A program made the position numbers and the translations under genes. A DNA stretch of 60,018 bases, counting the filler. It is 6 parts of 6 records of this genome, joined end to end, with 100 filler letters (N's around TTAATTAATTAA, not from the genome) between each part and the next. Parts side by side here need not be neighbours in the genome. Positions count along the whole stretch, not along the records: positions 12,847 to 32,085 come from DRR378314_1854; 5 more parts are not named here. One strand, written 5' to 3'. Numbering within the stretch: the first letter of the stretch is position 1; every line of letters begins with the position of its first letter. Below are positions 12,747-32,085 of the stretch, piece by piece. The notes beneath the pieces were generated by a model. It was not told where the DNA came from and did no database searches. It saw only the letters and a program-made list of their open reading frames with translations.

Positions 12747-12846
12747 NNNNNNNNNNNNNNNNNNNNNNNNNNNNNNNNNNNNNNNNNNNNTTAATTAATT
12801 AANNNNNNNNNNNNNNNNNNNNNNNNNNNNNNNNNNNNNNNNNNNN
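12747..12846. other. Artificial contig spacer
   Basis: 44 N + TTAATTAATTAA (stops in all six frames) + 44 N. Confidence 0.98.
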
Positions 12847-12847
12847 T

Positions 12848-12964
12848 GTGGCCACCGATGTCATTAGTGAATCCTTGGGGCATCAGAATTTAGGGGTTAC
12901 ACAAGCCTACCTAAAAGAGCTAGATACTGAGATTGTAGATAAGGCGCTTGAGGTCCTATTATAA
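12848..12964 (+). CDS. C-terminal fragment of a tyrosine recombinase/site-specific integrase (5' part lost in gap)
   Basis: Manual translation VATDVISESLGHQNLGVTQAYLKELDTEIVDKALEVLL* contains box II LGH and the catalytic Tyr. Confidence 0.85.
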   Translation: MATDVISESLGHQNLGVTQAYLKELDTEIVDKALEVLL

Positions 12965-13306
12965 CTCTAATAATAAGTGGGTAAGGCGGAACTCAAAGTA
13001 AATTCAAACACCATTATTACAACAATTATTGTTATGTGTTCATTAAAATAAAAAGTTCAGCAACAATGAACACGTAAAAATAATGAACGGCAAGTATTCA
13101 CTGAATCGCTATGACTAAACCCCATTGTTTACAAGCCTTTTTAAAAAAGTTTCTGCAGAAATTTCACTAAGCCAGCCATTCTTTTTAAACTTTTATTGAT
13201 TATAGAGCTTCTATTTTAGCTTTAACTATCTATTTAAATTAAACATGTATAATACTTATATCGCCATACCTTCACCTGTACAGGATGAAGCTGCCGCTTT
13301 AATATT

Positions 13307-14377
13307 TTACCTATTTCGGTCACTTAATGGATTCAACCTGTTTATGACTTTTCTTGCCCAGGCCAGGTAATTCTCAGTAATTGGATTCATTTGGTTTTTT
13401 AGAATAGCCTGCTTTTCCATTTCATCAATATAACGCTCCACCACTACTGCCCTGTTCCAATTTTCTGCATCTGTAAACAATTGATCTACTTTGGCCTTTT
13501 CCAATTCCTTTTCCTTTTTAATAGCTTCAAGTTTCTGTTCCTGCAATAATCTTTTGTTTTTTTCAATAGCTTGTTGGGCCCTAAGATCGTGCCAATACTT
13601 ACAGTCTCTTTCAATCCAAGCTATTATTTCGGACAGATATTCCTCAAGTTTTCGTTTATCCTTGTCAATCCACTTTTTTTGTCGGAATGAGGGGCCGGCC
13701 TGAAACTCAAGTTTGTCCGATTTCTTCCAAGATTCACGGCCCCACCCACTTTCATCTTTATCTCGGATTCTATATACTTTTTGTCTTAGATTAATTTCAG
13801 TCATCTGCCCAAACATTTCCACATGACAGCGACTATATTCAAATGTTATATTATGCCCCATTGCTTCCACAATTTGTATCAGTGTATTCATAAATCTAAG
13901 AGCCCTTGTTCTTAATGTTTTATCAGTATGAATTGGCAATATGTCCTTCTCTTGGGACACTTGCCGGAATTTAAACTTCTCTTTACTATCATCGATATTA
14001 TCCAAGAGTTTCTTTGAACTTCTGACTATTGGATGATACTTAGAAATGCTTCCTGGAACTATAAACTTTAATTCCTTTCGTTGTTCCAGTTCATAGGCTC
14101 GTTGATGATAATCCGTTCTAAATTTCCGAGTCTTTGGACCCGAATTAAGGTTTATGTGAGCAATACTATTCTCCATTTTGGGCAATGAGGTTTTAACTAC
14201 CTTTTTCTTGAACCTAACCTTGGACCAATAGCCACGATTTGGTAACGGAATTTTATTTTCCGAACAAATATCCTTTAAGCTTTGTGGTTCTATATTAAAC
14301 ATTTTCGCAAGTTTGCTTATGGGTTGGTCCCAAACTAGATTATACAATTCCTTTCTTGAAAAGCTATTTTCTTTCAT
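13307..14377 (-). CDS. Hypothetical protein with N-terminal HTH-like region and C-terminal coiled coil
   Basis: 356 aa; SRKELYNLVW..P...LA...C....IPLPNRGYW N-terminus of a type often seen beside island integrases; function unknown. Confidence 0.7.
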   Translation of the reverse strand: MKENSFSRKELYNLVWDQPISKLAKMFNIEPQSLKDICSENKIPLPNRGYWSKVRFKKKVVKTSLPKMENSIAHINLNSGPKTRKFRTDYHQRAYELEQRKELKFIVPGSISKYHPIVRSSKKLLDNIDDSKEKFKFRQVSQEKDILPIHTDKTLRTRALRFMNTLIQIVEAMGHNITFEYSRCHVEMFGQMTEINLRQKVYRIRDKDESGWGRESWKKSDKLEFQAGPSFRQKKWIDKDKRKLEEYLSEIIAWIERDCKYWHDLRAQQAIEKNKRLLQEQKLEAIKKEKELEKAKVDQLFTDAENWNRAVVVERYIDEMEKQAILKNQMNPITENYLAWARKVINRLNPLSDRNR

Positions 14378-14795
14378 TATTAAAATTATCTTAGTAAAAA
14401 TTCGAGTTTACACCCAAAAATTGGTCATTTACTCGAAAAAATTCTAAAGTTTGATTTTATTAGAATAATTAAAAGTATGAAGCAAAGGAAATTATCTTTT
14501 TTAAACGGGATGAACTCAGTAGTTCAATTGTTAAACCTGTAACTGCATTAAAAAAGAGGTAACTTATCTCACTGCTAAAAAGGAGTTCATTGCCTTGAGA
14601 TAGTATTTTTATTTGGTTATACCCCCAAAGGTATTCGCCATAGGACAAACTCCCATCACAACTTATGTACACATCAAGGAGCTGCCAAATTATGTAGTAT
14701 AACCCAATATGCAACCAGCTATGTAGCTCAACATAGTTTTACCTGTTATCTCATACTGGAAGTGTTACTGTAACTATATATCACACACCTTTAAT

Positions 14796-15491
14796 TTATG
14801 CCATTAATGTTTCCAACTTTTCCTTCCACTTTTTCCATTCTGGAAATTCCTTTTCTTGTAACTCAAAAAAAGCTTTGTTATGATCAAGGTGTACCAAATG
14901 ACATAATTCATGGACAATGACGTACTCAACACAAGCCTTAGGGGCCTTTATCAATTCATTGTTTAATAGAATTCTACCTTTTGCCGAACACGAGCCCCAA
15001 CGGTATTGCATTGGTTTAATTTCAATATTATTGGGGCTTACCTTATATTTTTTAAACCTAATTATCAAAGGCTCGGCAATTTTAGGAAACCATAATTTTG
15101 CCTTTTCTAAATACCAAGAGTTAAGCAGGACATGAACATGATCTAGATGAATAACATGGACTTCTATAAATCGCCCAGTGTATTTTACAAACTCATTGGA
15201 ATCAATAATCACTTTTAATTGATATTGTCTCCCTAGATATAAATGTGTTTCTCCTGAAATATATTTTCTTTTAGTAGTTCTTGGTTCAAACGAAAGGAAG
15301 TAATCTTTTTGTTTAAGTATCCAAGGGGCCTTCTTTCTGACTTTTTGTTCGATTTTCTCAAGACTACTTCCTTCAGGAGCTTTTACAATAGTGCTTCTGT
15401 CCGGATATACGCTAATTCCCAGTGATTTTCGATTAGTAAATTCTATGGCATAAGAAATAGCTTCTGATCCATACTGAATAGTCTTAATCAT
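14796..15491 (-). CDS. M48/SprT-like zinc metallopeptidase (YgjP/DUF45 family)
   Basis: RWGSCS and YVIVHELCHL (HExxH); start overlaps the hsdR stop. Confidence 0.9.
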   Translation of the reverse strand: MIKTIQYGSEAISYAIEFTNRKSLGISVYPDRSTIVKAPEGSSLEKIEQKVRKKAPWILKQKDYFLSFEPRTTKRKYISGETHLYLGRQYQLKVIIDSNEFVKYTGRFIEVHVIHLDHVHVLLNSWYLEKAKLWFPKIAEPLIIRFKKYKVSPNNIEIKPMQYRWGSCSAKGRILLNNELIKAPKACVEYVIVHELCHLVHLDHNKAFFELQEKEFPEWKKWKEKLETLMA

Positions 15492-18400
15492 GACTTATAT
15501 CTGATTTTAGCTATTTCAACTAGACGCTCGGCAATTTTATCGATATCCTCAAAACCTAGTTTTAATTGATGCTTATCCCTTATCTCATCAATAATGTAAT
15601 CACCAATGAGAAATACCATCTTTTTAGGGATATCTACACTTTTGTACCAATCTACTTTGCGGAGTGAATTGATAATTCTATCCGCCTCCAAAGCTAAAAG
15701 TTCGGATACCCTTTCTGTAACTTTGATATCCTCGGATACTTTTGAGAATTCTTCTTTACTAATACCGAAAAATGCTCTTGCCACATCTTTATCTTGAAGA
15801 GAACTGGGGATTTTTGAATCTGTTTTACTTAAAACACTTTCCATAATTTCCTGTATACGTTTTAGATACTCCGTCTCATTTATCCGTTTTTGAAGATAGT
15901 CCTGAATTGTCTCCTTTATAAGTTGTGAAAAACGTTTATAAAATGCCGGATCTTCATCCATTTTTTCTGAAATGTGCTTTGCTGTTCGGGATGCTATCAT
16001 ATCTGCTTTTGCCGCCTTCCCTATTACTTTTTCAACTTCTTCTTCAAAGGCATTCTTGTCAAAAATATTGACCAGATCAGTTAGTGTTACAACATCGGAT
16101 GTGGCAATATGTGTATCTATTAGCTTTTGTATCTGTCCTTCATATTTCTTGTAGTCTATTTTATCTGAATATCTTGAAGATACTGCAGAACGTAGTTTCA
16201 TAAAAAACGCTAAGTCTTCTTTGTATTTTAATATCCTTTTTTCTTCAGTTGTATTATGAAACAAAATAGAGGAGAGGGCAAGTTTAAGAATTCTAGCATA
16301 CTTGGCAAGTTTATCATAAAACTTGTTTCGTAAGGCCTCATCCCTTAATAATTGTTGATATTCTTCTGCATCCCTCTTATTGGTAATGCCAGTAAAAATA
16401 TTCCATAGCTCACTATGAACTTGCGGTAGAACATCAATTTCCTCATTAATATTTGTCAAGGTTCCCATTAACTGCTCTTCATCAAAATCTTCAAAGGCAG
16501 AATACGTTTTTAAAGCAGAATCCAATTCTTCAAGTACACCATAATAATCTATGATGTAGCCGTAGTCCTTATCAGTATTAACCCTATTGACCCTAGCTAT
16601 GGCCTGTAATAAGGTATGGCCTATAAGCTTTCTAGTTAGATAAAGAACAATATTATTAGGTGCGTCAAAACCAGTAAGAAGTTTGTCCACTACTATTATT
16701 AATTCTGGCTCGTGGTCGTTCTTAAACTGGTTGACGATGTTTTTCTGGTACTTTTTTGGGGTACCATGCTGATCCATCATTTTATGCCAAAACTGCTTTA
16801 CTAAATCTGATGTTTTGCCATAAGCCGAATCTTCCCCTTCACGTTCATCAGGGGGTGATATGATAAGTGCAGAGGAAACTCTGCCAAATTCATCCAAAAA
16901 GTTCTTATACTTTACTGCAGCTGCTTTTGACTGGCATACGACCTGGCCTTTAAACCCCGTTCCTTGGAAGTTCTTAACGTAATGGTTCGTGATGTCCCAG
17001 GCAATTGCATAAATCTTTTGATCTGCTATATTCAATTGATCTGCCCTACTAAATTTTTTCTTTAAATCAGCTTTTTCGTAATCTGATAATGGTTCAGAAA
17101 CCATGTTGAAAAAATTATCAATAGGGGCCGCGTTAACGTCCTGCATTGCATGGCGACCTTCATATAACAGTGGAACAACCGCTTTATCCTTTACTGCCTG
17201 GTCTACGGTATAGCTGTCTATAAGTGTTCCGAATTTGGACAGCGTATTTTTGTCTTTCTTGAATAAGGGAGTTCCGGTAAATGCGATAAAACAGGCATTG
17301 GGTAATGTTTTTTGCATTTCAATATTGAAAGTGCCGTGTTGTGTTCTATGACCTTCATCTACTAAAACAAAAATATTTTCGCTTTCTAGGGGTGTTTTGA
17401 TCTTACGAACAGCTGTCTCAAACTTGTTGATGACGGTTGTCACTACGGCATCACTTTCGGTTTTCAAAAGACCGACCAGTTGAGAACCTGTTTTAGCGTT
17501 ATCTACATCCATACCACACTTTTTAAAGGTACCTGTAATTTGAGTGTCTAAATCGGTTCTATCGGTTACGAGAATAATTTTCGGGTTTTTAATAGTGGAT
17601 TCCATGGCAATTGCCTGTGCAAGCATCACCATTGTTAAAGACTTACCACTGCCTTGCGTATGCCAAACGACCCCTCCAATACGTTTTCCGTTTTTCTTCC
17701 TGGTTAATTGGGCCATTGCTTTTTTAATGGCAAAGAACTGCTGATAGCGCGCTATTTTTTTTGCACCATTATCAAATAACGTAAAATCGTAAGCAAAATC
17801 AAGTAACCGTTCTTTTTGGCACAAGCAAAAGATATATTCATCTTGTGGTGTAACTTTAACTTGCTCCTGATCAAATGCCTCAAAATAGGTTCTTACATTT
17901 TTAAATCTTTCATTAAACATCTTTTCCTTCACCTCTTTTGATAAAGGAATATTTTTAAGTTGTGCTAATTTTTGTTTAAAATGAGTTTCTTTTTCTCTGT
18001 TTATTGACCCATCTGTATTCTTAAAATCTTCTTGCCATTTGGCCCAAAATTTTTCTGGAGTACCTGTGGTTGCATAGCTACCCTCATTGACCGTTATCGA
18101 AAGTACCAACTGGGCCATGGCATATAAGTTTCGAATACCGTCTTCTTGCTGATTTCTAAGATGTTGAGATATGGCCTGCTCTAATGGGTCCTTTATATCT
18201 GGTCGCTTACATTCTATGACACATAAGGGAATACCATTAACAAAAAGTACGATATCTGGCCTGTAATGTTCTTTAAGGCCGGAGCGTAAAACACTATACT
18301 CCTCAGTAACATGGAAAACATTATTTCCTGGAGTTTTCCAATCAATATAGTGTAAGTCAAAACTTTTACGATTGCCATCTACACTTTGGTCTAAAGATTT

Positions 18401-18715
18401 ACCAAGTGTCAACAGTTCATATATTTTTTGGCTTGTGCCCATATAGCCATCGACCATAGGGATGTCCCTTAAGGCAATTATGCCCCCTTCTATATTACTG
18501 TCTGAAAAGGCAACGGCTGTGTTGGAAGATACCCGAGCCTCATTTATTTTTTTTAATTGTTTTCTTAAAATACCTTCTAGCAAAACTCCAGAAGTTCTAC
18601 CGCCACGTGCGTTTAGGGCTTCTTCCTGATTTAAATAGGTGTACCCCATATTAATCAATAGCTGTAGCGCAGGTATCTGTGAGATATGGTCTTCTTTGAA
18701 TGAGGGTGTTTGCAT
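15488..18715 (-). CDS. hsdR: Type I restriction enzyme subunit R
   Basis: RPDIVLFVNGIPLCVIECK nuclease motif, WHTQGSGKS Walker A, DEGH, FTGTP, LLTGFDAP, QAIARVNR. Confidence 0.97.
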   Translation of the reverse strand: MQTPSFKEDHISQIPALQLLINMGYTYLNQEEALNARGGRTSGVLLEGILRKQLKKINEARVSSNTAVAFSDSNIEGGIIALRDIPMVDGYMGTSQKIYELLTLGKSLDQSVDGNRKSFDLHYIDWKTPGNNVFHVTEEYSVLRSGLKEHYRPDIVLFVNGIPLCVIECKRPDIKDPLEQAISQHLRNQQEDGIRNLYAMAQLVLSITVNEGSYATTGTPEKFWAKWQEDFKNTDGSINREKETHFKQKLAQLKNIPLSKEVKEKMFNERFKNVRTYFEAFDQEQVKVTPQDEYIFCLCQKERLLDFAYDFTLFDNGAKKIARYQQFFAIKKAMAQLTRKKNGKRIGGVVWHTQGSGKSLTMVMLAQAIAMESTIKNPKIILVTDRTDLDTQITGTFKKCGMDVDNAKTGSQLVGLLKTESDAVVTTVINKFETAVRKIKTPLESENIFVLVDEGHRTQHGTFNIEMQKTLPNACFIAFTGTPLFKKDKNTLSKFGTLIDSYTVDQAVKDKAVVPLLYEGRHAMQDVNAAPIDNFFNMVSEPLSDYEKADLKKKFSRADQLNIADQKIYAIAWDITNHYVKNFQGTGFKGQVVCQSKAAAVKYKNFLDEFGRVSSALIISPPDEREGEDSAYGKTSDLVKQFWHKMMDQHGTPKKYQKNIVNQFKNDHEPELIIVVDKLLTGFDAPNNIVLYLTRKLIGHTLLQAIARVNRVNTDKDYGYIIDYYGVLEELDSALKTYSAFEDFDEEQLMGTLTNINEEIDVLPQVHSELWNIFTGITNKRDAEEYQQLLRDEALRNKFYDKLAKYARILKLALSSILFHNTTEEKRILKYKEDLAFFMKLRSAVSSRYSDKIDYKKYEGQIQKLIDTHIATSDVVTLTDLVNIFDKNAFEEEVEKVIGKAAKADMIASRTAKHISEKMDEDPAFYKRFSQLIKETIQDYLQKRINETEYLKRIQEIMESVLSKTDSKIPSSLQDKDVARAFFGISKEEFSKVSEDIKVTERVSELLALEADRIINSLRKVDWYKSVDIPKKMVFLIGDYIIDEIRDKHQLKLGFEDIDKIAERLVEIAKIRYKS

Positions 18716-18718
18716 AGA

Positions 18719-21700
18719 TTATCTATTTTCTACATTATCATGATCAAAATCTGGAGGTGTATTTTTGAATATTTTAGTATCCTGGCCGGAGACCCTATTT
18801 TTTTGGAATTCGCGAAGTTTTTTAATATTTACATTTCCTAGTAACACTACACTGTTTTCTCCTCCTTTTAATCTAAGAATATCTTTGGTTTCAGTTTTAG
18901 ATGGTGCCGTAATCCTTGAATCACCAAAATCGGAGCTATTAGCTTGTACGAAATAACAGTGTACATCCCTTGTTACAGTCTCAACTATATTTGAGAAGTA
19001 ATTAATATCTTGATTGTATTCCGAAGCAAACAATAAATCTACTTTAGACTTAAATAGTGCTCTATGATCAATATCTGCCAATTCGTAGCAATTGTAATTG
19101 CTAAAATGGATACCACCCCAAACAAATAGATTATAGAAGGCATTTTTGACATTTGGGACCCTCTTTCCCTTATCTATAATAGTTTTAATCTCATGTGGTG
19201 AATAGTGATTTTTAAGCCTCAAATTGACCACTACATCCTTTATGCCGTTATGTTCCATTGGCAGTAAAGTGGCTAAAAAATTATAACATATATTTCCAAT
19301 TCTAATATGTTCTAGGCCAACAATTATTGTTCTTTGCTTTCTTCTAGCTTGATCAGCTAAAATTGGAAGCCATCTATATGGAGTACTAACTTCAGGTAAA
19401 ATTAGAATATCCGATTTTACTTTTTCAGCATCATTTAGCAAATTAATGAATTCCCTACGTCTATCGATATCCGTATTTGGTTTACCAAATAAAGACTTTT
19501 CAATATTTAAGGTGTGGACCTTAGTATTGGCTACAGCAATTCGTAGGTTGTCAAAAATTCTCTTTGACTGTGGTATTTCAATTCGATTATAACTTAACTT
19601 ACTATTCGTAGTTTTATGACCTTCCTCAATTTTAAAGTAATAGTTTTTTAAATTATTAAGATGATCATTAATCTCTTTCTCTCTTTTATCAGTATAAAAA
19701 CCATTTCTTTGAGTATAGTTCACATTAAAAAACTCCTTAAAACTTTGGTCAAAAAGTGTTTGTCTTGAGGGCTCAAAGAAATCACCATCTCCATTCTTAG
19801 AGCTTGAAATCAAACTCCTCACAAAATCAATCAAATTGAATTCAAAGAGATAAATAAACCGGGGAGCGTATTTGAGTTTTCTTTTATCATATTCTAAAAC
19901 GCCGTTCTCAAAACCAATGGCAATATCACGGAGATAGTCATATTTTATGAGATTGGTCTTGTCATTCTGTGCGATATTTAAATAATTTAACAATGGAACA
20001 ACTACAAAGCTATTTCTCAATAAACTGGATGATATATAATCATTTTTAAGAGCATACACTTTTTTGTGAAAACTCTTGTTCAGCCAGTTATATCTGAAAT
20101 TTTTACATCGACTCTCCCACCAATTTTGGTCAACAAAGTTTGGGTTTAATGAAGTTGCAAGTGCACAGCAATTCATTAAGTAGTTGCCTAAATAGTCTTT
20201 AACACCTTCAACTGTTTTAGAGTTAATTTTCCTTTTATCTGAAGACTTTATTTTTTCAATAGAGGACACTGTTTCTTTAAAAAATCTCCAAAAAGCTTCC
20301 CTATCATTTATAATAACGAAATAGGTCAATACCTTTTCCCAAAGGTTAGAAAATTCCAAATTAACTATTCCTTTGAAGAAAGTAAGAATCTGTTCGGTTG
20401 TTTTGTCATCCTTTCGGTTATCGGACAAAAGGCTAACCTTTATTCGTTTTGCAAGGAAAATTGAAGCTCCATATTTACTTTGTTTAATATCTGCAACACT
20501 CCTTAATTTGTTAATTGTATCCGTATAAGTTAGTTCATAAACGCTTTCATCAAAATCATCATTAATATCACTCTCGTTGGGCAAGAACCAAAAAGCACTC
20601 GAGTTTTGTTCTATTTTCTTTTTGAACATATCCAGAACCGCCTGAGATTCTTTGCTTTCAAAAGAGTAAATCGTTATTTTTTCCTTTTGAATTCTTATTT
20701 TTTCATCATCCTTAAAATGATAAGTAAGCTCCCGGTCCTGTATTGATTTTTCCGTATTATCTGGAATAGCCTTGAAAATATTCCTTTCAATGAAAAATTT
20801 ATTTAGAAATGCCTCCAACGGGGACTTAAATTTATTTTTATCAAAATCCTTTGAAATTTTCGTATTACTTAAAACAATCAAAATGTCATCAACATACCTG
20901 CCATAGTAGGCCGGTGAAAGTTCTTCTTTGATTTTATTGTCGAATTCCTTTAAATACCAATTGGCTAATATCCCCGAAGATAAAATACCAATGGGCATTA
21001 TAGCCATGGAATCCTTAGGACATTTTGTTTGATAGACTTCATTAATTTTGAATATCATTTGTGTAAATAACAACCCACTTACACCTAATCCACTTGCAAT
21101 TCTCTTATGCAGTTTGTCTTGAAGATTTAAATCATACCCTATATTATAATAGTATTCTTTAATATCGAGTGAAAGTATAACAACATCGGTATCCTCTGCA
21201 ACGATACTTTTGGCAAGATCCACTCCTTTATCACGCCATTTTTGATACTGTTCAAAGTAAGGTTTGAATAATCTCAGACCATCAACAACGTTACCGTTTT
21301 CAGAATTTAACTCTAAGAAGTATGCATAATTATCCTTACTATAATCTTTGTGCAATATGTATCCTTCTCTAATTATCCATAAAATAGAAATTAGATGCAA
21401 CTCAACAGGTCCCTGAAAAAAATAGTTTATTTTTTTTAGATCATAATTCTTTTCCGAAAAATTATTGCTTATAATATTATCCCCACCAAAAACCTGTTCT
21501 CTCACAAAAGTTTTTGGAGCAATGAAGTAATCAATCGATTTTAATAAATCCTCAAAATATTTTTTCTTTGTTACCGGTGCATTTAAAAAGGCGACCAAGG
21601 CATCTAGTTTACCCTCAAAAACTTCTTCAATAGCTTCAAATTCTGCCAATTGTTGGCGAAGCAATAGTGAGAAGTTGTCATAATATACGTAACTCTTCAG

Positions 21701-21742
21701 TTTCCTATATGCTAAATCTATATCTTTCCTTTTAAATGCCAT
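18719..21742 (-). CDS. Reverse transcriptase fused to C-terminal nitrilase (carbon-nitrogen hydrolase) domain; DRT1/UG1-UG5-UG6-like defence RT
   Basis: RT motifs LSLDIKEYY, MPIGILSSGILANWYL and YYGRYVDDILIV (YVDD at 20885-20896). Nitrilase E-K-C triad: ILPE (E at 19391-19393), RLKNHY (K at 19211-19213), NCYE (C at 19088-19090). Confidence 0.9.
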   Translation of the reverse strand: MAFKRKDIDLAYRKLKSYVYYDNFSLLLRQQLAEFEAIEEVFEGKLDALVAFLNAPVTKKKYFEDLLKSIDYFIAPKTFVREQVFGGDNIISNNFSEKNYDLKKINYFFQGPVELHLISILWIIREGYILHKDYSKDNYAYFLELNSENGNVVDGLRLFKPYFEQYQKWRDKGVDLAKSIVAEDTDVVILSLDIKEYYYNIGYDLNLQDKLHKRIASGLGVSGLLFTQMIFKINEVYQTKCPKDSMAIMPIGILSSGILANWYLKEFDNKIKEELSPAYYGRYVDDILIVLSNTKISKDFDKNKFKSPLEAFLNKFFIERNIFKAIPDNTEKSIQDRELTYHFKDDEKIRIQKEKITIYSFESKESQAVLDMFKKKIEQNSSAFWFLPNESDINDDFDESVYELTYTDTINKLRSVADIKQSKYGASIFLAKRIKVSLLSDNRKDDKTTEQILTFFKGIVNLEFSNLWEKVLTYFVIINDREAFWRFFKETVSSIEKIKSSDKRKINSKTVEGVKDYLGNYLMNCCALATSLNPNFVDQNWWESRCKNFRYNWLNKSFHKKVYALKNDYISSSLLRNSFVVVPLLNYLNIAQNDKTNLIKYDYLRDIAIGFENGVLEYDKRKLKYAPRFIYLFEFNLIDFVRSLISSSKNGDGDFFEPSRQTLFDQSFKEFFNVNYTQRNGFYTDKREKEINDHLNNLKNYYFKIEEGHKTTNSKLSYNRIEIPQSKRIFDNLRIAVANTKVHTLNIEKSLFGKPNTDIDRRREFINLLNDAEKVKSDILILPEVSTPYRWLPILADQARRKQRTIIVGLEHIRIGNICYNFLATLLPMEHNGIKDVVVNLRLKNHYSPHEIKTIIDKGKRVPNVKNAFYNLFVWGGIHFSNYNCYELADIDHRALFKSKVDLLFASEYNQDINYFSNIVETVTRDVHCYFVQANSSDFGDSRITAPSKTETKDILRLKGGENSVVLLGNVNIKKLREFQKNRVSGQDTKIFKNTPPDFDHDNVENR

Positions 21743-21752
21743 ATGGTAATTT

Positions 21753-23000
21753 TTAATATTTTAACCTTTTCTTCCCCGTCAACAATTGCTGCATAAGGCC
21801 TTTCTTTTGTTTTTTTAATTGTTTCAGATGTTTTTCAAACAATTCAATTTCTTGGTCAGCTGATTTTAAAATTTTAGCAATCGCCACTTGCTCATCGTAT
21901 GGAGGTATTTTGATTTTAAGCTTGTTTAGTTCCTTTTTACTCAAAACCCTGTTTCGGCCAGCGCCACCTGGAGATATTAATTCTAATAAGTATCTAAATC
22001 GTTTGGATTGGATGAATTGTTTAAAAAAATCAGTATCACTAATCCCATCTTTAAATGTATAAGTTGGAAAACGATGCGAAACCAATGCTCCTGCATCTTT
22101 ATCTTTTACAATTGCCACAGCGCCCTCCCAAGCGAACGTGATATTCACAATTAAATCTTTTGGTTTAACTAAGTACAGTGTGTCAATCGCAATTTCCTCT
22201 GGTTCAAAACCCAAATTTTGGAAAGTACCTTTACAATGACTTCGAATCCCCAATTTTATAAATGCCGCTTCTGGTTTTTGAACAGGTCTTGGCGTATAAT
22301 CCAAGAAAAAATCAAAACGATTTATTTTCCAATCCTTTTCAAACCCTGACAAGCGTTTTTTACCAGAAAGCAATTTCTGCATTAATGCTTTTTTAAGTTG
22401 CTTTTTGGTGGCAATTAACTTAGTTTGTTTGGTAATGGCCGCATCCCAAACAGAAAGGCAGTTGGCTATCGTTTCTTGTTCTGGCAGAGGTGGAAGAGGA
22501 ACATTCAACCCACCGTATTCTTCACCATTAATGCCTGGTTGTCCACTTCGAACCGACATAACATTCACCCATTTCCAATAATTTTCAGACTGTGTAAAAT
22601 ACTTCAAATAAGAACTATTTAATATAGATTCTTTTATGGAAAACTTTATCAAAAATCCTGCATAAACCAATTCACCATCTTTAAGGTCATATAAATATGT
22701 TTTTCCTACGGTTGCACCTGTTCTAACAAAAACAACGTCGCCTTTTTGCAAAATGAAACTCTCATAATTTGGATCATCAACAGACATTTTTTTCTTTCTT
22801 GAAAAATTCCCCTCGTCATCAATATCCGTTATTCTCAGGTAGGCCGGTAAATCCTCCCTATAAGAAACAGCAGAAGCATTTATACCATAGGAACCTTTTG
22901 AATTACATAGCTCAACTAGTTTCTGAGTTTCCCAATCCATAGGAATCCATCCTAATTTGGTTTTTTTTAAGCAATTACTTTTCGTTTCTGCCTCTTTCAT
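21753..23000 (-). CDS. hsdS: Type I restriction-modification specificity subunit (two TRDs)
   Basis: LGWIP-DW N-terminus, LPPLPEQ and IPPYDEQ conserved repeats, KKALMQKLL and KKGLMQQLLTG helices. Confidence 0.95.
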   Translation of the reverse strand: MKEAETKSNCLKKTKLGWIPMDWETQKLVELCNSKGSYGINASAVSYREDLPAYLRITDIDDEGNFSRKKKMSVDDPNYESFILQKGDVVFVRTGATVGKTYLYDLKDGELVYAGFLIKFSIKESILNSSYLKYFTQSENYWKWVNVMSVRSGQPGINGEEYGGLNVPLPPLPEQETIANCLSVWDAAITKQTKLIATKKQLKKALMQKLLSGKKRLSGFEKDWKINRFDFFLDYTPRPVQKPEAAFIKLGIRSHCKGTFQNLGFEPEEIAIDTLYLVKPKDLIVNITFAWEGAVAIVKDKDAGALVSHRFPTYTFKDGISDTDFFKQFIQSKRFRYLLELISPGGAGRNRVLSKKELNKLKIKIPPYDEQVAIAKILKSADQEIELFEKHLKQLKKQKKGLMQQLLTGKKRLKY

Positions 23001-24346
23001 ATACCCGTTTCATTTTTATTTTCCACTAGGGCATTCAACTTTTGAACCAGTTGCCGAACACTCTGTTTTACGCTAGAGGTTAGAACTTCCAAATCTATTT
23101 TTTCATTGTACAAGTGCTCACTTTTTAAGTGATCAGGATAGTGGTGTTCAATCTCAAACTTATAATCGTGAAAATATAAAGTGAAGCCCAGGCTTAAACT
23201 TTCTTGCTTTGGAAGTAAAGGCTTAAATTCTTGTAAAAAGATGCGAAACTGAAGGTAGTCAATGGTAGCTAAATCATAACTTCCCCAATATTCTTCACGC
23301 TGATCTGGTAACCATTCAAATTTTTGGGCTTTTCCATTTTTGGTCATTATTTCAGCTTTATTAATGATAAATTTATCACGGAGCTTAGCCCATTGCCTAT
23401 CATATTCAAACAATACCGGAAGAAATACGGCAATTAGCACTTGATTAATATGATTATTTGACCTTCTTGGGACTTCTTTATTGCTGCCATTTATTTTCTG
23501 TTCAAGCAGTGCTAATTCCTTTTCTAAATCATCTGGTTCATCTATCGATTTTCCTTGAGCTGCGGCAATGGCTAATTCTGTTGTCTTTAAGGACTCTGTC
23601 GCAATCAGCTCCGCTAAAGGCAATGGATTCTCTAAAGAACTCAAGTTCAACATGCTGTAGTAAGTGTCCCTTTCCTCTAAACGGATAATTGCCGGTGTAT
23701 AGCCGCACTGCATCAAAATTAGATTGCCCAAAATACGAGATAATCTGCCATTACCATCACCGAAGGGATGTATCTGAATAAAGCGAACCTGGAATGCGGC
23801 TGAAATCAGAATGGGATGTAGATTGTATTTTCTCTTTTTCCGCTTTGGCTTTTCAATTTGATTATTTAGCCAATTAATAAGTGTATTCAATTCTTTAACC
23901 ACTTCTTCAGGAGGCAAAAAATCAATCCTTTCACCCGTGATGGTATATAAATAATTGGGTTTTGTCTTATATTTTCCAGGGGCTATTTCTGTTTTATCAT
24001 CGGTAAACGGCTCTACCAGGATCATCTGGTGTAAATCCATAATGAGTTTTTCAGATATCATTACATCTTTATCTACAAGACCAGTAAGCTTTTTCAAGGT
24101 TTCGTTATGGCCACGCATCTCAATATAGTCTCGAAATGGTTTACCTTTGGCGGTAATCCCATGCAGGATAAATGCCTTGGTTTCATGAGCCGTAAGGGTA
24201 TTACCTTCAATACTATTACTGTGGTAATTCCAATCCAGACGTAACTTTTGCTCAAGTTTATTTTGTTGTTCTTCACTTAATGGTCTTAATAAATCCAATT
24301 CAGATTTTTTTGCATCAAGTGCACTTATAATTTCAGGTAATTCCAT
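22997..24346 (-). CDS. Fic family protein (intact FIC motif, N-terminal autoinhibitory motif)
   Basis: HPFGDGNGRLSR canonical motif; SNSIEGN (S/T)xxxE(G/N) motif; stop overlaps the hsdS start. Confidence 0.93.
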   Translation of the reverse strand: MELPEIISALDAKKSELDLLRPLSEEQQNKLEQKLRLDWNYHSNSIEGNTLTAHETKAFILHGITAKGKPFRDYIEMRGHNETLKKLTGLVDKDVMISEKLIMDLHQMILVEPFTDDKTEIAPGKYKTKPNYLYTITGERIDFLPPEEVVKELNTLINWLNNQIEKPKRKKRKYNLHPILISAAFQVRFIQIHPFGDGNGRLSRILGNLILMQCGYTPAIIRLEERDTYYSMLNLSSLENPLPLAELIATESLKTTELAIAAAQGKSIDEPDDLEKELALLEQKINGSNKEVPRRSNNHINQVLIAVFLPVLFEYDRQWAKLRDKFIINKAEIMTKNGKAQKFEWLPDQREEYWGSYDLATIDYLQFRIFLQEFKPLLPKQESLSLGFTLYFHDYKFEIEHHYPDHLKSEHLYNEKIDLEVLTSSVKQSVRQLVQKLNALVENKNETGI

Positions 24347-24367
24347 ATTTGCATTGTTTGATTAGAT

Positions 24368-25897
24368 TTACTCTAAACCAAGTTCTTTTAAATAATTTTT
24401 CATTTCCGCTTGCACTCCGGCCAATTCCTTCTCCAATTGATCAATTTCTTGCTGAACCGCAGTAATATCTATTTCCTCCTCTTCCTCAAAAGTGTCTACA
24501 TACCTTGGTATGTTCAAGTTAAACTCATTCTCCATCATCTCGTCAAAAGGAGCTACATAACTATACTTATCCTCTAGAACACCCGCTTTGAGGTTACCCT
24601 TTTTAAAATTATAATAGGTATCTACAATGCGGTCAATATGTTTTGGAAGCAATTCATTCTGGTTTTTACCGCTGGCATATTCTTCACTCGCATCAATAAA
24701 CAGCGTATCCGTTCTTTTCTCTTTACCTTTATTGAAAATTAATATCGCTGCTGGTATACCGGTTCCAAAAAAGAGATTGGCGGGTAGGCCAATAACGGCA
24801 TCCAATAAATTATCTTCAATCACTTTTTTACGAATTCTTCCCTCTGCACTTCCCCTAAAGAGTACACCATGTGGTACAACGACTCCGATCATTCCAGTAT
24901 CATCATAGGCGCTTTCGATCATATGTAAAATAAAGGCCCAATCGGCTTTACTTTTTGGCGGAACTCCTCGCGAAAATCGGTGATATTTATCGTTCTCAGC
25001 ATCCTCAGAACCCCATTTGTCCAATGAAAAAGGTGGGTTTGCCACAACAGTATCGAACTTCATAAGATTGTCTCCCTCTGTATGCTTGGGGTTTCTAAGG
25101 GTATCTCCCCATCTTATGGAAGCATTGTCAAAACCATGTAAAAACATATTCATTACCGCTAATGCCCATGTACTGCCATTCGCTTCTTGCCCATAAAGCG
25201 AAAAGTCATTACCTTCCACTTGTTGTCCTGCTTTAATCAATAATGAGGCTGACCCACAAGTAGGATCGTAAATTCGTGCTCCTGGTTTCGACTTAGTCAA
25301 CTTGGCCAATAAAGTAGAAACTTGTTTTGGGGTGTAAAATTCTCCCGCTTTTTTCCCGGCATCACTAGCAAAATTTGAAATTAAAAATTCATAAGTATCA
25401 CCCAAAACATCTTGCCCATCAAGTGATGAAGGTTTTAAATCCAATTTGTTAAAATCGGTCAACAAGTTTTTAAGCCTCGCGTTCTTGTCTTTTTTATCAC
25501 CTAAATTACTGCTATTGAAACTAATATTCCTAAAGATACCGGCACCGTCAGAGCTTGTTAACTTTTCCCTATTCTGTTCTTCCAGGTCCGCAAGGGCAAT
25601 ATCTATTAGTTCGCCTATATTGGGTTCGTTTCGCTTGTCATAAAGATCACTAAAATGACTATGTGAAGGAACAATAAATCGCTCAGAAGCCATGGCTCTT
25701 TCCGCCCTGCGGACATCACCATCATATTTAATTAGGTGTTTTTGATATCGTTCCGTGTAGGTATCAGAAACATACTTTAAGAAGAGCATGACAAGAATAT
25801 AATCCTTGTACTGACTAGGATCAATAACCCCTCTAAAAGTGTCGCATGCCTGCCAAACCACCCTGTTTACATCCTCTGACGTAAGTTTTTTACTCAT
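24368..25897 (-). CDS. hsdM: Type I restriction-modification methyltransferase subunit M
   Basis: GEFYTP, DPTCGS, NPPF (m6A MTase motif IV), GVLFRG, NLNIPRYVD. Confidence 0.97.
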   Translation of the reverse strand: MSKKLTSEDVNRVVWQACDTFRGVIDPSQYKDYILVMLFLKYVSDTYTERYQKHLIKYDGDVRRAERAMASERFIVPSHSHFSDLYDKRNEPNIGELIDIALADLEEQNREKLTSSDGAGIFRNISFNSSNLGDKKDKNARLKNLLTDFNKLDLKPSSLDGQDVLGDTYEFLISNFASDAGKKAGEFYTPKQVSTLLAKLTKSKPGARIYDPTCGSASLLIKAGQQVEGNDFSLYGQEANGSTWALAVMNMFLHGFDNASIRWGDTLRNPKHTEGDNLMKFDTVVANPPFSLDKWGSEDAENDKYHRFSRGVPPKSKADWAFILHMIESAYDDTGMIGVVVPHGVLFRGSAEGRIRKKVIEDNLLDAVIGLPANLFFGTGIPAAILIFNKGKEKRTDTLFIDASEEYASGKNQNELLPKHIDRIVDTYYNFKKGNLKAGVLEDKYSYVAPFDEMMENEFNLNIPRYVDTFEEEEEIDITAVQQEIDQLEKELAGVQAEMKNYLKELGLE

Positions 25898-26448
25898 TGT
25901 ATTTTACTTTTTAATTGATATTCAAGTTTAATATTCCTTAGACTTTCTAATTTTAGAATTAATTTCGATTCATGTTTTTTTAGTTTATCCAAAGCAACGA
26001 TTTTTGTCTGGCTTGTCAAATCTGTCAGTTCAATGTCCAAGTCCCCAAGTATTCTTTTGTTAATGGCCGGTAATGCCGAACCACGACCATAACTTGTCAA
26101 TACTTCCTGAGTGGACCTTAAATTAATATACCAAGCCAAATACTCTGGAAGAACATTGGAGTTGATATTCCTTAATACCATAAAAATAGATGAAGCCACT
26201 GCAGGAAATTTAACCCCTTGGTAACAATGAGCTGAAAAACCATTGTGCCCTTTTGATAAAACTAAAACATCTCCCTTTTCCAAAAAATGTTTGTCCAGTT
26301 TTGAGGAATGAATAATGCCTGGTTCCATTAGCGGATCAAGTTTGTGAACTTCAACAAAATCGCTACCACCCAAGTAGAACACAGTTCCTTGAGGGTTTCT
26401 TCGCTCATTTATTCCCGAAGATATAGTTGCAATTTCAGATAATTTCAT
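25894..26448 (-). CDS. Half-size HsdS-like protein (single TRD-CR unit)
   Basis: MKLSEIATISSG, LEKGDVL, AVASS, LPEYLAWYIN, GSALPAI, then helix; ATG at 26448; stop overlaps the hsdM start (ATGA). Confidence 0.8.
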   Translation of the reverse strand: MKLSEIATISSGINERRNPQGTVFYLGGSDFVEVHKLDPLMEPGIIHSSKLDKHFLEKGDVLVLSKGHNGFSAHCYQGVKFPAVASSIFMVLRNINSNVLPEYLAWYINLRSTQEVLTSYGRGSALPAINKRILGDLDIELTDLTSQTKIVALDKLKKHESKLILKLESLRNIKLEYQLKSKIQ

Positions 26449-26498
26449 TTTAGTCGTTGTTATCAATGTACAAATATTGAAATTATATTTCGATTACA

Positions 26499-26506
26499 CA
26501 AATTTA
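26499..26506 (-). promoter_or_regulatory. Candidate Bacteroidota -7 promoter for the R-M/RT operon
   Basis: Minus strand TAAATTTG about 50 nt upstream of the first ATG; a chance match is possible in AT-rich DNA. Confidence 0.4.
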
Positions 26507-26619
26507 TTTTATTGTTATTAGCGTACAAATACTATCCTAGATAAGATTAAGCAGAGTGTTTTTAACCTTTTTGTATTTAAAAGACTCAGCATCTGGTCAA
26601 GTGAGGCACATTAAAATAT

Positions 26620-26685
26620 CCAAGTCTTACCAGTAAACTTTGCGCCTAGATCCTGTCCGATTTTTGTTGTGTTCGGGAAAATAAT
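26620..26685. repeat. Degenerate att-like core plus 45-nt conserved arm (copy A)
   Basis: 26641-26685 matches 32041-32085 at 41/45 positions; preceded by CCAAGTCTTACCAGTAAACTT, which resembles the att-like core. Confidence 0.85.
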
Positions 26686-26687
26686 CG

Positions 26688-26704
26688 TACCTGCCCGGCA
26701 GGTA
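26688..26704. repeat. Short perfect inverted repeat (REP-like)
   Basis: TACCTGCC-C-GGCAGGTA, 8-bp arms. Confidence 0.6.
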
Positions 26705-27027
26705 GAAGGCAAAAAACGGATAGGGTTCACATGCTTATTTAATTAGGAACGATATCACTTTTCGTGGTAGCAAGAACACGTGTGTTGGCAAGATTAAAGG
26801 CATGAGACGCACTTTTTCTAAGTTACATGCTTTTATTAGCGAGCCAATGGGGTTTGGAAAATCCAAATGAAATCGAGTCCATATTATTGGCAATTATGAG
26901 CTAGGAGAACTCAATACCATTACATACTCTAAAGTAGAAAACAACTTATAAGAGCCTACTTTCCCATATATACATAGGTATTTGATAATGACCGAATAAT
27001 ACCTATTTTTAAATCAAATAACATTGG

Positions 27028-30000
27028 ATGAAAATGATACCTAGAGGGTTGGCTGTTTTGGGCACCCTGGCTACATCGACCCTCATTTCGTTTTTAATTG
27101 ATGGTGGAACCACCGCTACATTAGGATTCACCACAAAAGTGCTACATAGTCTCGGAGGAATATTAAAAAATAACTTGGATGGATCTTTTTTCAACCAATT
27201 ATTAGATGCCAAAAATAATTATTCCGCTGTTTTAAACCATGATCTTGAAAAGGCCTACAAGGCATCACTTAAAAATACATTTAATGAATTGAGAAAGGAG
27301 TTTTATTCCGAAGTAGGCATTTCCATTAGCCTGGTAGCGCAAATAAAAATTAGGTTCAACAATATTACCACTGAGGATTTCAATAAGAAAACATCAATTG
27401 AACGCCTATTCTTTAAGCCATTGGAACTAGCCCTATCCAATCCAGAACTAATAGACTCCATTTTTCGTGATAAAAAAGAAGTTCAACTGGATACCATTGT
27501 TAAAGATATATTGCTAAACTGCCCCAATGTGGAATATCCTTATTTCGTTGATACTGAAAAGGACAAGGAAAAATTACTGGACATTATATGTAGGGACTTC
27601 AATAAAAAATTCTTGTCCCATTTCAACAATGAACTAAAATTAAATAAGAATGCCGAGACCGTTTATCACACCAACTTACTCCAAACCTGTGTAAAGAACC
27701 TTACCGAAATCATTGATGGACAGACAGCAATTTTATCCAACCAAACCGATTTAAAAAGAGATCTAAAAGAGCTTATAAAGTTTTCCAGTTGGAACAAATT
27801 GGACATGGAAATCCTAAAAAGTCAAAATTCACAAATCCTTACCCAGATTAATGAAATAAAAGAAATACTTACAACAAACTATTCTCCAGTTCTAAAAATA
27901 TATGATAAAAGACCTGAAAATGTTAATATTAAGGACAGGTTTCTATACGAATCTCTTTTTACCAATTTCGTAGGTCGAGGAAACGAGCTAAATTTAATTT
28001 ATGACTTCCTAGAGGAAGACCAAAAATTTTCCTGGTTAATGATAGAAGGACCCAGTGGATCTGGAAAAAGTAGATTTGCCAATGAAGCATGTCTCAGAGC
28101 TAGGGATATTGGATGGGATAGTGGTTTTGCTCCTATTGGTCATAATAAAGATTATAATTGGGGCAATTTTAGACCGGTCAATGATACCTTGATCGTCTTC
28201 GACTACGTAAGGTCCAGAAAGGACGATATTCGTCATATTCTGGAATCATGCAAAATTATAGAGGATATTGCCAAAGACAAATTATTTCCAAAACTTCGAA
28301 TATTGTTATTGGAGCGGTTTTTTGATTCTAAACTGATTAATGCTCTGGACAATGTCAATGTAAGAAATAATTACTTCCGATTTAATGGACATGAAAATTT
28401 GGCTTACCCATTGCCAGAGTTGGAAGAAGATTCTCGATGGAATATCCTAAAACAAATTTTTCGAGGTAATATCCTAGAGGAAAGTTTGATAGAACAAAAA
28501 AATGAGATTCTATCCCAAATCCAACAACAAGATCCATTAAATAGACCATTGTTTACTTTTTTCAGTGGGATTGCTTTGGTGGAAGGTGAAAATATTAAAG
28601 GTTGGGATACAAATCAAAACTTACACTATCATTTAAATAGACAGGAAGTCAATTTATGGAGTAAAAACCCATTATGGGAATTACATCAGAGAGCGTTAAA
28701 GAACTTAATTTGGCTTGCTACCATGTGTGAGTACATAACTCCAAAGGATGTACTTGATTACATTGCAATCGATCAACGATTAATTGATTTTGAATTAAAT
28801 AAAAAAAATAGGGAATGCATTGAAGAACTATTTAAAGTGGTAAATGAAAAAAATGACCATGAAACATTTTACGGAATAAAGCCAGATATTTTTGGTGAGT
28901 ATTTTATTGTAAATTACTTGGAAGAAATAGAAGAAGACAGTTGGGAGTCTAGGGAGTTGGCTCCACAATTATTTGTGACATCTTTCCTTATTGACCCCGA
29001 GAATGCAGCCAGTTCCATAAGTATTACTTCGGACAATTTTTTTCACTCTAAGGGATTCAATATACTTGAGGATTTCTTGAAGACTTATTATAACGCCGAT
29101 TTCATTCCCGAGAGCATTGAGTTCGGATTTTTATTAGCAGATATTGGAAATCGTCATTATATGCAGAATAATGTCCAAGAGGCGCAAACTTACCTTTTAT
29201 TGGCAGCGGAATTGCAAACCGCATATGCATATATAGGTTTGGCTTTGATTTATCAGCACGATGGCAATTTCGACCTTGCTGTAAAATGCTTTTTGAAAGC
29301 TATACAACTCTGCGATAATGATCCTTTTTCAAATTTAAGTTGGGTTTACTATCAGTTTGCCAAATTTTATAGGGACAATAACAATTTTGAAGAAGCAAAA
29401 ATTTATTATGGTAAGGCCATGGAATTTGAAACAGAGGGCTCGCTGGAATCGATTGTAGCTTTAGCGGAATTGTTTTTGAAGGAAGGAAACGAGAAAGAGG
29501 CGGAAAGAACACTTTTGATTGGGCTGGAACGTGATGATGCCAAATCTATTCACTCCCTAGGAATTCTTAAAAGATCTCATGGGAACATGGCAGAAGCTCA
29601 GAAATATCTGCAAAATTCTTTGAATCTAAATAATTTCGAGTCTGCCATTAGTCTTGGCTTAATCTATGTTGATCAAAATGAAATTGCCCTGGCGGAACGG
29701 GTTTTTCTCAAAGCAATTAATTCTAAAGACTCAGCACCAATAGCCTATCGAAATCTAGCCTTTCTGTACTATAAGACCAATCAAAAAAAGGAACAATCAT
29801 TGGAATATATTAACCGTGCCGTTCAATTGGATGAAGATTCACTTATCAACAAATTTTGTAGACAAATAATTTATTTATGGTGTCATAAATTAAATGAATT
29901 TGATTCAAATAATAAGGAACTAGAGACGGAATATGACAAAATTGAATTGCCACTATTAGAAGAATACATATTCCACTTATTAGTTCATAGACAAATTAAT

Positions 30001-30174: not shown

Positions 30175-30179
30175 AGTGC

Positions 30180-30896: not shown

Positions 30897-31315
30897 GGTT
30901 ATTGTTTTTAGTCTAAAAATAATGAAACATCCTTATTCTTTAATCTAAAGGCTAATTTATTAGTTTCTTGGCTCATGCTGTGTTGTATAAATGTTACAAT
31001 TCTCCGGGATTCTTCGCACTTGAACGCCCCCATGGCTTTCATGCAAATTAATAGAAATTAAACAGATTCTATTTATAGCCCACCTTGATAACTATTCTGA
31101 CTCACTACAATCTGTAAATAAAGGATTATGCACAATTTGACCAAACAGAATTAACCATTATGAGGAGTAACCTAAATAAACTATTTTAGTAAATATAAAG
31201 GGAATATGGCTACCAATTATATCCAATGGTTAGGTGTTAAACAGACCTCTATAAGGTAATCTAAAAGACAAAAAATGGTATTTATGGCAATTAAAAATTT
31301 ATTAAAACTTGTATC

Positions 31316-31768: not shown

Positions 31769-32015
31769 CTAATACCTACCTAACATTTTGAATAGGTAAT
31801 GGCAGGACTGGTAAGAGCCCTGACAAGTTAAAGCACTTTTCTATTATGACGGTAAGCTACTCGAAAAATTAAATTACACAATAACATTCGCAGATTCAAG
31901 AGGAATTACTGTATTCATTTGAAATTCTAGAATGAAATTAATTTGCACACATAAATATTAAAATTTTCGATTTTAGAATACCGCCTAAACGATTGTTTAA
32001 CAGATCTTGCAAGGC

Positions 32016-32085
32016 CCCCAAATCTTACCAGAACTTAACCTGCGCCTGGATCCTATCCGATTTTTGTAGTGTTCGGGAAGATAAT
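32016..32085. repeat. att-like core plus 45-nt conserved arm (copy B, end of contig 2)
   Basis: CCCCAAATCTTACCAGAACTTAAC matches 12722-12746; TGCGCCTGGATCCTATCCGATTTTTGTAGTGTTCGGGAAGATAAT matches 26641-26685. Confidence 0.85.

Follow-up and report, generated by a model that had tools for sequence, protein, structure and literature searches.

A UG5-large reverse transcriptase-nitrilase gene as cargo between hsdS and hsdR of a type I restriction-modification operon

When a gene for a reverse transcriptase (RT) fused to a nitrilase lies between the specificity gene hsdS and the restriction gene hsdR of a type I restriction-modification (R-M) operon, does it work with the Hsd proteins, or is it an independent defence gene that is carried along with them? 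The question is raised by a gene on the minus strand at positions 18719..21742 of a stretch of DNA of 60,018 nucleotides (the window), which the initial annotation had read as a DRT1-like antiphage gene coupled to restriction in the manner of the anticodon nuclease PrrC. This window was put together from several contigs, with linkers of the form 44N-TTAATTAATTAA-44N between them (12747-12846, 32086-32185, 40194-40293, 47226-47325, and 54246-54345), the insert of which carries stops in all six frames. The contig holding the RT-nitrilase gene corresponds to window positions 12847-32085, and because of this construction gene context is usable only inside that interval. As set out below, the gene is best explained, with a probability of roughly 0.7 for the whole chain of the argument, as a self-contained defence gene of the UG5-large class that would act by a mechanism of the DRT1/DRT11 type and is carried as cargo in the type I operon; its linkage to R-M would then not stem from any obligatory contact with the Hsd complex or control by it.

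The open reading frame (ORF) begins with ATG and encodes 1007 amino acids, followed by a stop codon. Its translation bears out the RT motifs and the nitrilase triad that had been reported: LSLDIKEYY (D193, K195), PIGILSSGILANWYL (residues 250-264), and YYGRYVDD (residues 279-286) are intact, and E784 (LILPEVS), K844 (LRLKNHY), and C885 (YNCYEL) make up the Glu-Lys-Cys set of the nitrilase. The quoted catalytic residues of both domains, including Y283-V284-D285-D286, E784, K844, E851, and C885, are invariant across 89 aligned homologues, and K993, P996, and P997 in the C-terminal region are invariant as well.

The assignment to a DRT1-like class, in contrast, had to be given up. The PADLOC profile PDLC03780 (RT_UG5-nitrilase) matches residues 3-1002 with an E value of 3.5e-256, covering profile positions 21-893 of 907, whereas the runner-up group, Drt1a (UG1), reaches E 2.9e-27 over residues 158-368 alone. 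The length of 1007 amino acids also departs from the 1229 amino acids of DRT1 (9yfd_A) and from the 1200-1300 amino acids given for that class (Mestre et al. 2022, PMC9226505). UG5-large proteins consist of an RT with a fused C-N hydrolase (PMC9226505), and the window protein has UG5 as its best UG/Abi profile, a C-terminal nitrilase with Glu-Lys-Cys, and an intact YxDD motif. By profile comparison it is a UG5-large RT-nitrilase, that is, a class 3 UG/Abi RT of the kind named DRT11, and not UG1/DRT1. The gene is intact, and the antiphage role proposed for it in the initial annotation is upheld as a prediction from class membership.

General domain libraries contribute little to this assignment; a Pfam search of the ORF at E 0.01 gave no match, and NCBIfam gave a sub-threshold match to Drt3a and nothing else. 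Homologues are plentiful: of 7,999 candidates that were scored, 794 reach E <= 0.001. The closest one, under the NCBI name Yeosuana marina, is 80% identical over the full length and is followed by Tenacibaculum proteins at 71-72%; alignments to homologues of 36-80% identity cover the ORF completely (100%). When the protein was compared with plasmids by tblastn, no match was obtained at E 1e-30; five records appeared at E 1e-5, among them the DRT11 locus (NZ_CP009145.1, 109356-112313; 24.4% identity over 80% of the query, E 8e-26).

Three regions can be delimited, all encoded on the minus strand. The RT core comprises about residues 137-361 (20660..21334), with YVDD at residues 283-286, as defined by a profile alignment to DRT1 (9yfd_A) over query residues 137-323; it is followed by a middle region of about residues 362-703 (19634..20659), which is mostly helical by DSSP of the structural model, in agreement with the initial annotation, and by the C-terminal nitrilase (C-N hydrolase) domain of about residues 704-1007 (18722..19633), which carries E784, K844, E851, and C885. 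The AlphaFold2 model has a mean pLDDT of 87.8 and a pTM of 0.88. For the C-terminal third, the best Foldseek matches are nitrilase-superfamily amidases (E about 1e-8, target TM score 0.5-0.66), and the PADLOC profile RTasNitrilase matches residues 712-1000 with E 1.2e-34. DRT1 is not among the Foldseek matches, but its entry may postdate the April 2026 cut-off of the library searched. A profile built from 20 homologues does match the solved DRT1 structure (9yfd_A, E 1.1e-23), with YGRYVDD of the query aligned to YCRYVDD of DRT1 and the C885 motif aligned to C1116; D324/D325 and C1116 are the residues mutated in the work on DRT1 (PMC13275509). One loop of the middle region, residues 381-420, is modelled with a pLDDT of 54-67 although it is conserved, S382, L387, P388, and Y406 being invariant in the 89 homologues and S415 nearly so.

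The flanking genes are those of a type I system, as had been stated. Restriction subunit HsdR (1075 amino acids; 15488..18715, minus strand) matches SWI2_SNF2 (E 1.7e-78), HSDR_N (E 2.1e-32), and TIGR00348 (460 bits); methyltransferase subunit HsdM (509 amino acids; 24368..25897, minus strand) matches N6_Mtase (E 4.5e-106), HsdM_N (E 9e-26), and TIGR00497 (307 bits, against a cut-off of 242.75 bits), both subunits scoring above the curated cut-offs; and the full-length specificity subunit HsdS (415 amino acids; 21753..23000, minus strand) matches Methylase_S in two stretches (E 1.2e-26) and Specificity_I (E 8.4e-70). On the minus strand the order is halfS-hsdM-Fic-hsdS-RT-hsdR-ygjP, and the successive gaps or overlaps amount to -4, 21, -4, 10, 3, and -4 nt, the 4-nt overlaps lying between the end of halfS and the start of hsdM, between Fic and the start of hsdS, and between the end of hsdR and ygjP. 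The junctions on either side of the RT gene read exactly as first described, with TAA, 10 nt, and ATG between hsdS and RT and with TAA, TCT, and ATG (3 nt) between RT and hsdR, and these gaps leave no room for an adjacent non-coding RNA (ncRNA). No terminator-like site was found in the intergenic gaps of the operon in a combined sigma-70 promoter and terminator scan; the promoter part of the scan returned 56 sites against a shuffle mean of 51.9, that is, no enrichment, with a consensus that may not fit the promoters of the host. Judged from this spacing, the seven genes would form one operon, and the RT-nitrilase gene is very probably transcribed together with it. Its GC content is 0.31, compared with 0.33-0.38 in hsdR and hsdM.

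A small membrane partner, described for DRT1, had been noted as missing from the locus. None is present beside the gene, hsdR beginning 3 nt past the RT stop; this is, however, no peculiarity of the locus. The lack of both a transmembrane partner and an ncRNA is normal for the class, because a downstream transmembrane protein occurs in only 31/299 UG5-large members (PMC9226505) and because in DRT11 the transmembrane protein is not needed and an ncRNA was not detected (PMC13436386). For the window itself, an Rfam search gave no match and an ARAGORN scan found no tRNA; therefore neither an ncRNA nor an integration site is indicated.

The recurrence of the arrangement was surveyed in two samples of relatives, the best 80 of 565 from genome contigs (600 pattern matches) and the best 80 of 531 from metagenomes (597 matches). 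Loci were annotated by searching ORF calls with the Hsd proteins of the window, iterated hidden Markov models, and multiple seeds; Pfam was run on 152 of 353 unlabelled neighbour ORFs, so that the R-M counts are lower bounds resting mainly on the detection of HsdM and HsdS. An EcoEI-type HsdR in a Roseburia metagenome-assembled genome (L077), for instance, was missed by phmmer with the window HsdR and detected by Pfam; its addition as a seed yielded no additional linked loci. In the genome sample, type I genes adjoin the RT gene in 17/80 loci, of which 16 are co-oriented and one, an archaeal case (L079), is convergent; a locus whose fused M/S gene runs opposite to the RT gene (L031) was left out of the linked count. 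The order S-RT-R is found in six loci (L001, L004, L030, L041, L044, and L077), R-M-S-RT in two (L002, L003), M-S-R-RT in three (L018, L050, L062), M-RT-S in one (L015), and S-RT with no R in view in three (L016, L058, L065), while the remaining one (L067) reads S-SIR2-HerA-RT-McrB-McrC-R. In this last locus, from Bermanella (L067:5662-20406), five cargo genes, namely a SIR2-like, a HerA-like, the RT-nitrilase, a McrB-like, and a McrC gene, fill the space between hsdS and hsdR; its content is a small defence island within a single type I operon.

In the metagenome sample, hsd-like genes flank the RT gene in 13/80 loci, 11 of them operonic (L081, L089, L101, L105, L107, L112, L140, and L148-L151) and two loose (L100, L104). 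Where both flanks extend for 4 kb or more, 12/49 genome loci and 5/24 metagenome loci are linked, and de-replication of the pooled samples at 90% identity leaves 27/126 clusters R-M linked. The neighbourhood survey that the initial annotation had called for thus finds hsdS-RT-hsdR synteny across phyla (Bacteroidota, Ignavibacteriota as labelled, Gammaproteobacteria, and Bacillota). Most of the sampled UG5-large genes nevertheless stand apart from R-M, at 63/80 genome loci and 67/80 metagenome loci.

Two further samples, 401 Flavobacteriaceae genomes and 401 genomes drawn from the phylum, were not picked by similarity to the window. PDLC03780 matches five of the Flavobacteriaceae genomes, two of which are R-M linked (G001, G239) and three not, and three further genomes of the phylum sample, 3/3 of which are linked (L198, S-RT-R; L199, M-S-S'-x-R-RT; L200, M..RT-S-R). 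Within these loci some R-M-linked UG5-large genes are decayed, one (L062/L197, from G239) being broken into three pieces with an inserted ORF of 334 amino acids and another (L200, from G673) into two pieces with stops. In four gut metagenome contigs (L148-L151) and in a Bacteroidota locus (L199), the RT gene follows M-S-R operons in which additional hsdS copies, in reverse orientation, separate hsdS from hsdR, an arrangement that suggests phase-variable specificity beside the RT gene.

What the site between hsdS and hsdR holds in the absence of an RT gene bears on the interpretation. Close relatives of the window HsdR (E <= 1e-150) occur in 17/401 Flavobacteriaceae genomes, and the 16 operons other than L001 (L178-L193) were mapped as RT-less controls; none of the 16 contains an RT gene. 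In all of them (16/16) hsdR is followed by ygjP, and hsdM is in view in 14/16 (not in L181 and L182), each time with a small HsdS-like ORF ahead of it. At least one non-hsd ORF of 90 or more amino acids lies directly upstream of hsdR in 15/16, that is, in 14 of the 15 operons with hsdS in view and in the truncated L182, where it is a Peptidase_M78 ORF; in L180 the same place is an empty gap of 429 nt. Pfam analysis of 47 slot ORFs identified, between hsdS and hsdR, a PycTM effector, Piwi (pAgo) with partners, patatin with a SMODS/DncV cyclase (CBASS), Schlafen-like ATPases (SLFN_AlbA_2/HATPase_c_4), DUF3800 pairs, Fic, AGS_C, and several unmatched ORFs, which amounts to at least eight unrelated cargo types. 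The slot between hsdM and hsdS holds RhuM, Metallophos, or small ORFs in the relatives. The cargo ORFs that were unmatched in Pfam at E 1e-6 (for example, 770 amino acids in L179, 332 in L178, 335 in L188, and most of an ORF of 1246 amino acids in L185) are candidates for unknown defence genes.

The boundary of the cargo falls at the start codon of hsdR: the DNA of the window can again be aligned to that of the RT-less operons L178-L180 (about 72% identity) from window 18715-18720 on, at most a few bases from this ATG. A shared recombination site upstream of this ATG was considered and dropped, no conserved motif being found there across the carrier operons compared. The RT-nitrilase gene is a defence-type, non-hsd gene inside a co-oriented type I operon, related operons of which carry other cargo; the site between hsdS and hsdR accepts cargo promiscuously, the RT being one among many alternative fillings. 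An independent comparison was made with the SMODS cyclases (PF18144) of CBASS, of which there are 30 matches in 29/401 of the same Flavobacteriaceae genomes. Genes of hsd type lie within 8 kb of 9/30 of them, and 2/30 lie between hsdS and hsdR. This rate resembles that of the RT; therefore linkage is to be regarded as a property of defence genes gathering around type I operons in these bacteria and not of the RT.

Embedding as such is familiar. Genes lodged in type I R-M, BREX, and DISARM systems have been surveyed (Payne et al. 2024, bioRxiv 10.1101/2024.01.29.577857), and there DRT type III was found embedded once, against 1,273 non-embedded homologues. In the main text of that survey, UG5, nitrilase, and reverse transcriptase do not appear among the embedded cargo, and its supplementary tables may list UG5; a literature search found no description of UG5 inside a type I operon.

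Phylogeny of the RTs (76/81 rows; quick search, LG+G4) was calculated after removal of L055, L062, L063, L066, and L078, in which the longest RT ORF has fewer than 850 amino acids. The tree tracks host taxa. The window RT falls into a clade of seven members (SH-aLRT 100); outside this clade, R-M-linked RTs are scattered among unlinked kin from the same host groups, as exemplified by L044 and L067, which are placed among the unlinked gammaproteobacterial L037, L045, and L034, and by L030 beside the unlinked L009 and L011. The S-RT-R arrangement changes at least four times on well-supported branches.

From what is known of relatives, a working model can be drawn up. The RT-nitrilase would be a self-contained, single-protein abortive-infection defence that needs neither an ncRNA nor a membrane partner. 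DRT11 of the UG5-large class protects Sinorhizobium meliloti from phages by means of its RT and nitrilase alone (Sanchez-Nieto et al. 2026, PMC13436386). For DRT1, 'DRT5S', and 'DRT5L', template-free synthesis of covalent DNA adducts has been described, the adducts gating the nitrilase, and purified 'DRT5S' and 'DRT5L' produce protein-linked DNA; in DRT1, the adducts drive the assembly of tetramers and filaments that hold the nitrilase dormant (Neville et al., PMC13275509). By analogy with DRT1 and these purified class 3 enzymes, the RT domain of the window protein would carry out template-free DNA synthesis with the protein itself as primer, the priming site perhaps being situated in the conserved loop 381-420 with its invariant S382 and Y406, a loop of low model confidence. 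The DNA adduct would then drive oligomer assembly through the nitrilase domain and keep the nitrilase dormant, the conserved C-terminal tail possibly corresponding to the domain-swapped lid of DRT1. Eventually, a phage replication factor would release the nitrilase, and the infected cell would be stopped. R-M system and cargo would constitute a layered defence, co-transferred and co-expressed at a hotspot for defence cargo.

Several observations weigh against this explanation. Linkage is frequent for a single gene family (17/80, 13/80, and 27/126 clusters), and in the two similarity-unbiased samples together it reaches 5/8 UG5-large loci. All seven members of the clade of the window RT are R-M linked, in three gene orders and with HsdR matches to the window HsdR that range from E 0 to E 3e-28, several of them weak (E 1e-28 to 1e-40); linkage kept across three gene orders and divergent HsdR proteins would look like the picture expected of a selected association. 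The RT stop and the hsdR start are 1-5 nt apart in five operons (that of the window, L001, L004, L030, and L041), so that expression of hsdR may depend on the cargo gene. As to the mechanism, the equation of 'DRT5S' and 'DRT5L' with UG5-small and UG5-large is a reading of the names that the sections of PMC13275509 consulted do not state; DRT11 is only 24% identical to the window protein.

Among the alternatives, synergy without contact fares best but is unlikely. The RT-nitrilase would sense products of restriction or of phage counter-measures, such as DNA ends, single-stranded DNA, helicases, or changes in the nucleotide pool, and selection would keep it beside the R-M genes. High linkage in several samples would be accounted for in this way, and there are two precedents: against several phages, the embedded TgvAB pair of V. 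cholerae on its own protects 10- to 100-fold less well than the complete cluster does (PMC11411939), and the T4 helicase Dda, a phage factor acting on single-stranded DNA, is required for DRT1 activity (PMC13275509). Against it stand the similarly linked CBASS comparator, which leaves no RT-specific excess, and the majority of UG5-large genes, which are found without R-M.

The guard role put forward in the initial annotation is weaker still. PrrC, the gene of which we take to lie between hsdS and hsdR of the EcoprrI type I locus, is kept latent by EcoprrI and is activated by Stp of T4. Transferred to the window, the Hsd complex would hold the RT-nitrilase latent until a phage anti-restriction protein hits Hsd and releases it. 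Of the PrrC slot claimed for the gene, the position between hsdS and hsdR stands, the order of the PrrC locus itself being presumed; this position, the tight spacing of RT and hsdR, the complete linkage of the window RT clade (7/7), and the occurrence of linkage in several type I families and phyla, including the EcoEI-type operon of the Roseburia genome, are all in line with a guard. The controls are not. The same slot houses at least eight unrelated cargo types, and CBASS cyclases are linked in 9/30 cases; the RT has no constant Hsd neighbour, given its variable position (S-RT-R, R-M-S-RT, M-S-R-RT, M-RT-S), and R-M-linked RTs are closely related to unlinked ones in the tree. PrrC is hardly ever found outside type I R-M (Payne et al. 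2024, bioRxiv 10.1101/2024.01.29.577857), whereas UG5-large genes are unlinked in 63/80 and 67/80 loci, and the characterised relatives DRT11 (PMC13436386) and DRT1 (PMC13275509) defend as single genes in other hosts, with no mention of Hsd in the passages considered. A guard function of the window gene must therefore be considered highly improbable, and the claim of R-M coupling gives way to that of a general cargo hotspot. That the gene is an inactive passenger, a decaying and functionless insertion, for which the broken relatives L062/L197 (three pieces plus inserted ORF) and L200 (two pieces) could be cited, can practically be dismissed in view of its full-length ORF, the retention of all invariant residues, and the confident fold.

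Should UG5-large proteins after all be wired to type I restriction, either as a guard held by Hsd or through tuning to signals made by restriction, which is quite improbable, this would account for the presence of at least a fifth of the sampled UG5-large genes in type I operons, which belong to several families and phyla, and would explain why the clade of the window RT keeps its linkage through three gene orders; a guard would, moreover, extend the PrrC paradigm to a polymerase-based effector, a prospect that the controls make unlikely. With a cargo gene, the gain is of another kind. Both the RT-nitrilase class and embedding in type I operons are already known, and the hotspot is demonstrably promiscuous; the window gene is a marine, Flavobacteriaceae-like, R-M-embedded addition to a class validated only recently (DRT11, 2026), and its operon offers a natural setting in which to test whether cargo and carrier R-M cooperate. 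The more useful by-product is the definition of a carrier family, halfS-hsdM-(slot 1)-hsdS-(slot 2)-hsdR-ygjP, with the cargo boundary at the hsdR ATG.

The other components of this carrier deserve description. The first gene of the operon encodes a half-size HsdS-like protein of 190 amino acids (25894..26466, minus strand; Methylase_S E 7.2e-06, Specificity_I E 2.8e-15); a halfS gene of about this size is kept ahead of hsdM across related operons, which suggests a regular part of the system and not a leftover. Slot 1, between hsdM and hsdS, is occupied by a Fic-domain protein of 449 amino acids (22997..24346, minus strand; Fic E 3.3e-16, PDC-S04 E 1.1e-29, SoFic E 2e-23), the gene of which starts 21 nt past hsdM and is a second embedded gene besides the RT that the initial annotation had missed. 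The last gene encodes a YgjP-like metallopeptidase of 231 amino acids (14796..15491, minus strand; E 4.5e-52); a YgjP-like gene follows hsdR, often overlapping it, in the window and in 16/16 related operons, and one is also present in gammaproteobacterial and Ignavibacteriota S-RT-R operons. Divergent to the operon, positions 27028-30174 (plus strand) encode a protein of 1048 amino acids with a P-loop (weak AAA_16) and TPR repeats, which had no match in the PADLOC profile search and could be a STAND-type defence NTPase. The later contigs of the window are of a different nature. Positions 32186-60018 have a GC content of about 0.5, compared with 0.31-0.39 in the bacterial parts, and few ORFs under translation table 11, and they encode domains of eukaryote type, namely a P4-type phospholipid ATPase (36854-39859) and CEP76 (45575-46519); the source record has the look of a mixed bin or of a eukaryote assembly that includes contigs of bacteria. 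That the 32-60 kb part comes from the same organism as the operon contig was rejected, since linkers set it apart as separate contigs.

Comparing the locus with known systems, its closest counterpart is DRT11 of S. meliloti RMO17. Both proteins are UG5-large, with an RT, a helical region, and a C-terminal nitrilase, both retain YVDD and the catalytic Cys, they are of nearly the same length (1005 and 1007 amino acids), and neither gene has an adjacent transmembrane protein or ncRNA. They differ in that DRT11 is found on a megaplasmid, in a variable region next to AbiE-like and toxin-antitoxin modules and not in a type I operon, and in that the two share only 24.4% identity over 80% of the length. 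DRT1 (UG1, 9yfd) is likewise a class 3 UG/Abi RT fused to a nitrilase, with an RT palm and a nitrilase Cys region that can be aligned to those of the window protein, and it is probably the model to follow for nitrilase gating by template-free, protein-primed synthesis; it is longer (1229 amino acids), and its priming residue S402 is reported not to be conserved in other class 3 DRTs (PMC13275509). With PrrC of EcoprrI, the window gene would share the position of a non-Hsd defence gene between hsdS and hsdR, if the order assumed for that locus is correct; the proteins are unrelated. PrrC is almost exclusively embedded (Payne et al. 2024), while UG5-large genes mostly are not. The best parallel for the arrangement is offered by TgvAB on VPI-2 of V. 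cholerae (PMC11411939) and by the embedded genes of the type surveyed by Payne et al., which, as is proposed here for the RT-nitrilase, are autonomous defence genes lodged in a type I operon. To this type the Fic gene of slot 1 would also belong: it matches PDC-S04, a PDC family, and candidates of this kind were derived by Payne et al. from their embedding and added to PADLOC.

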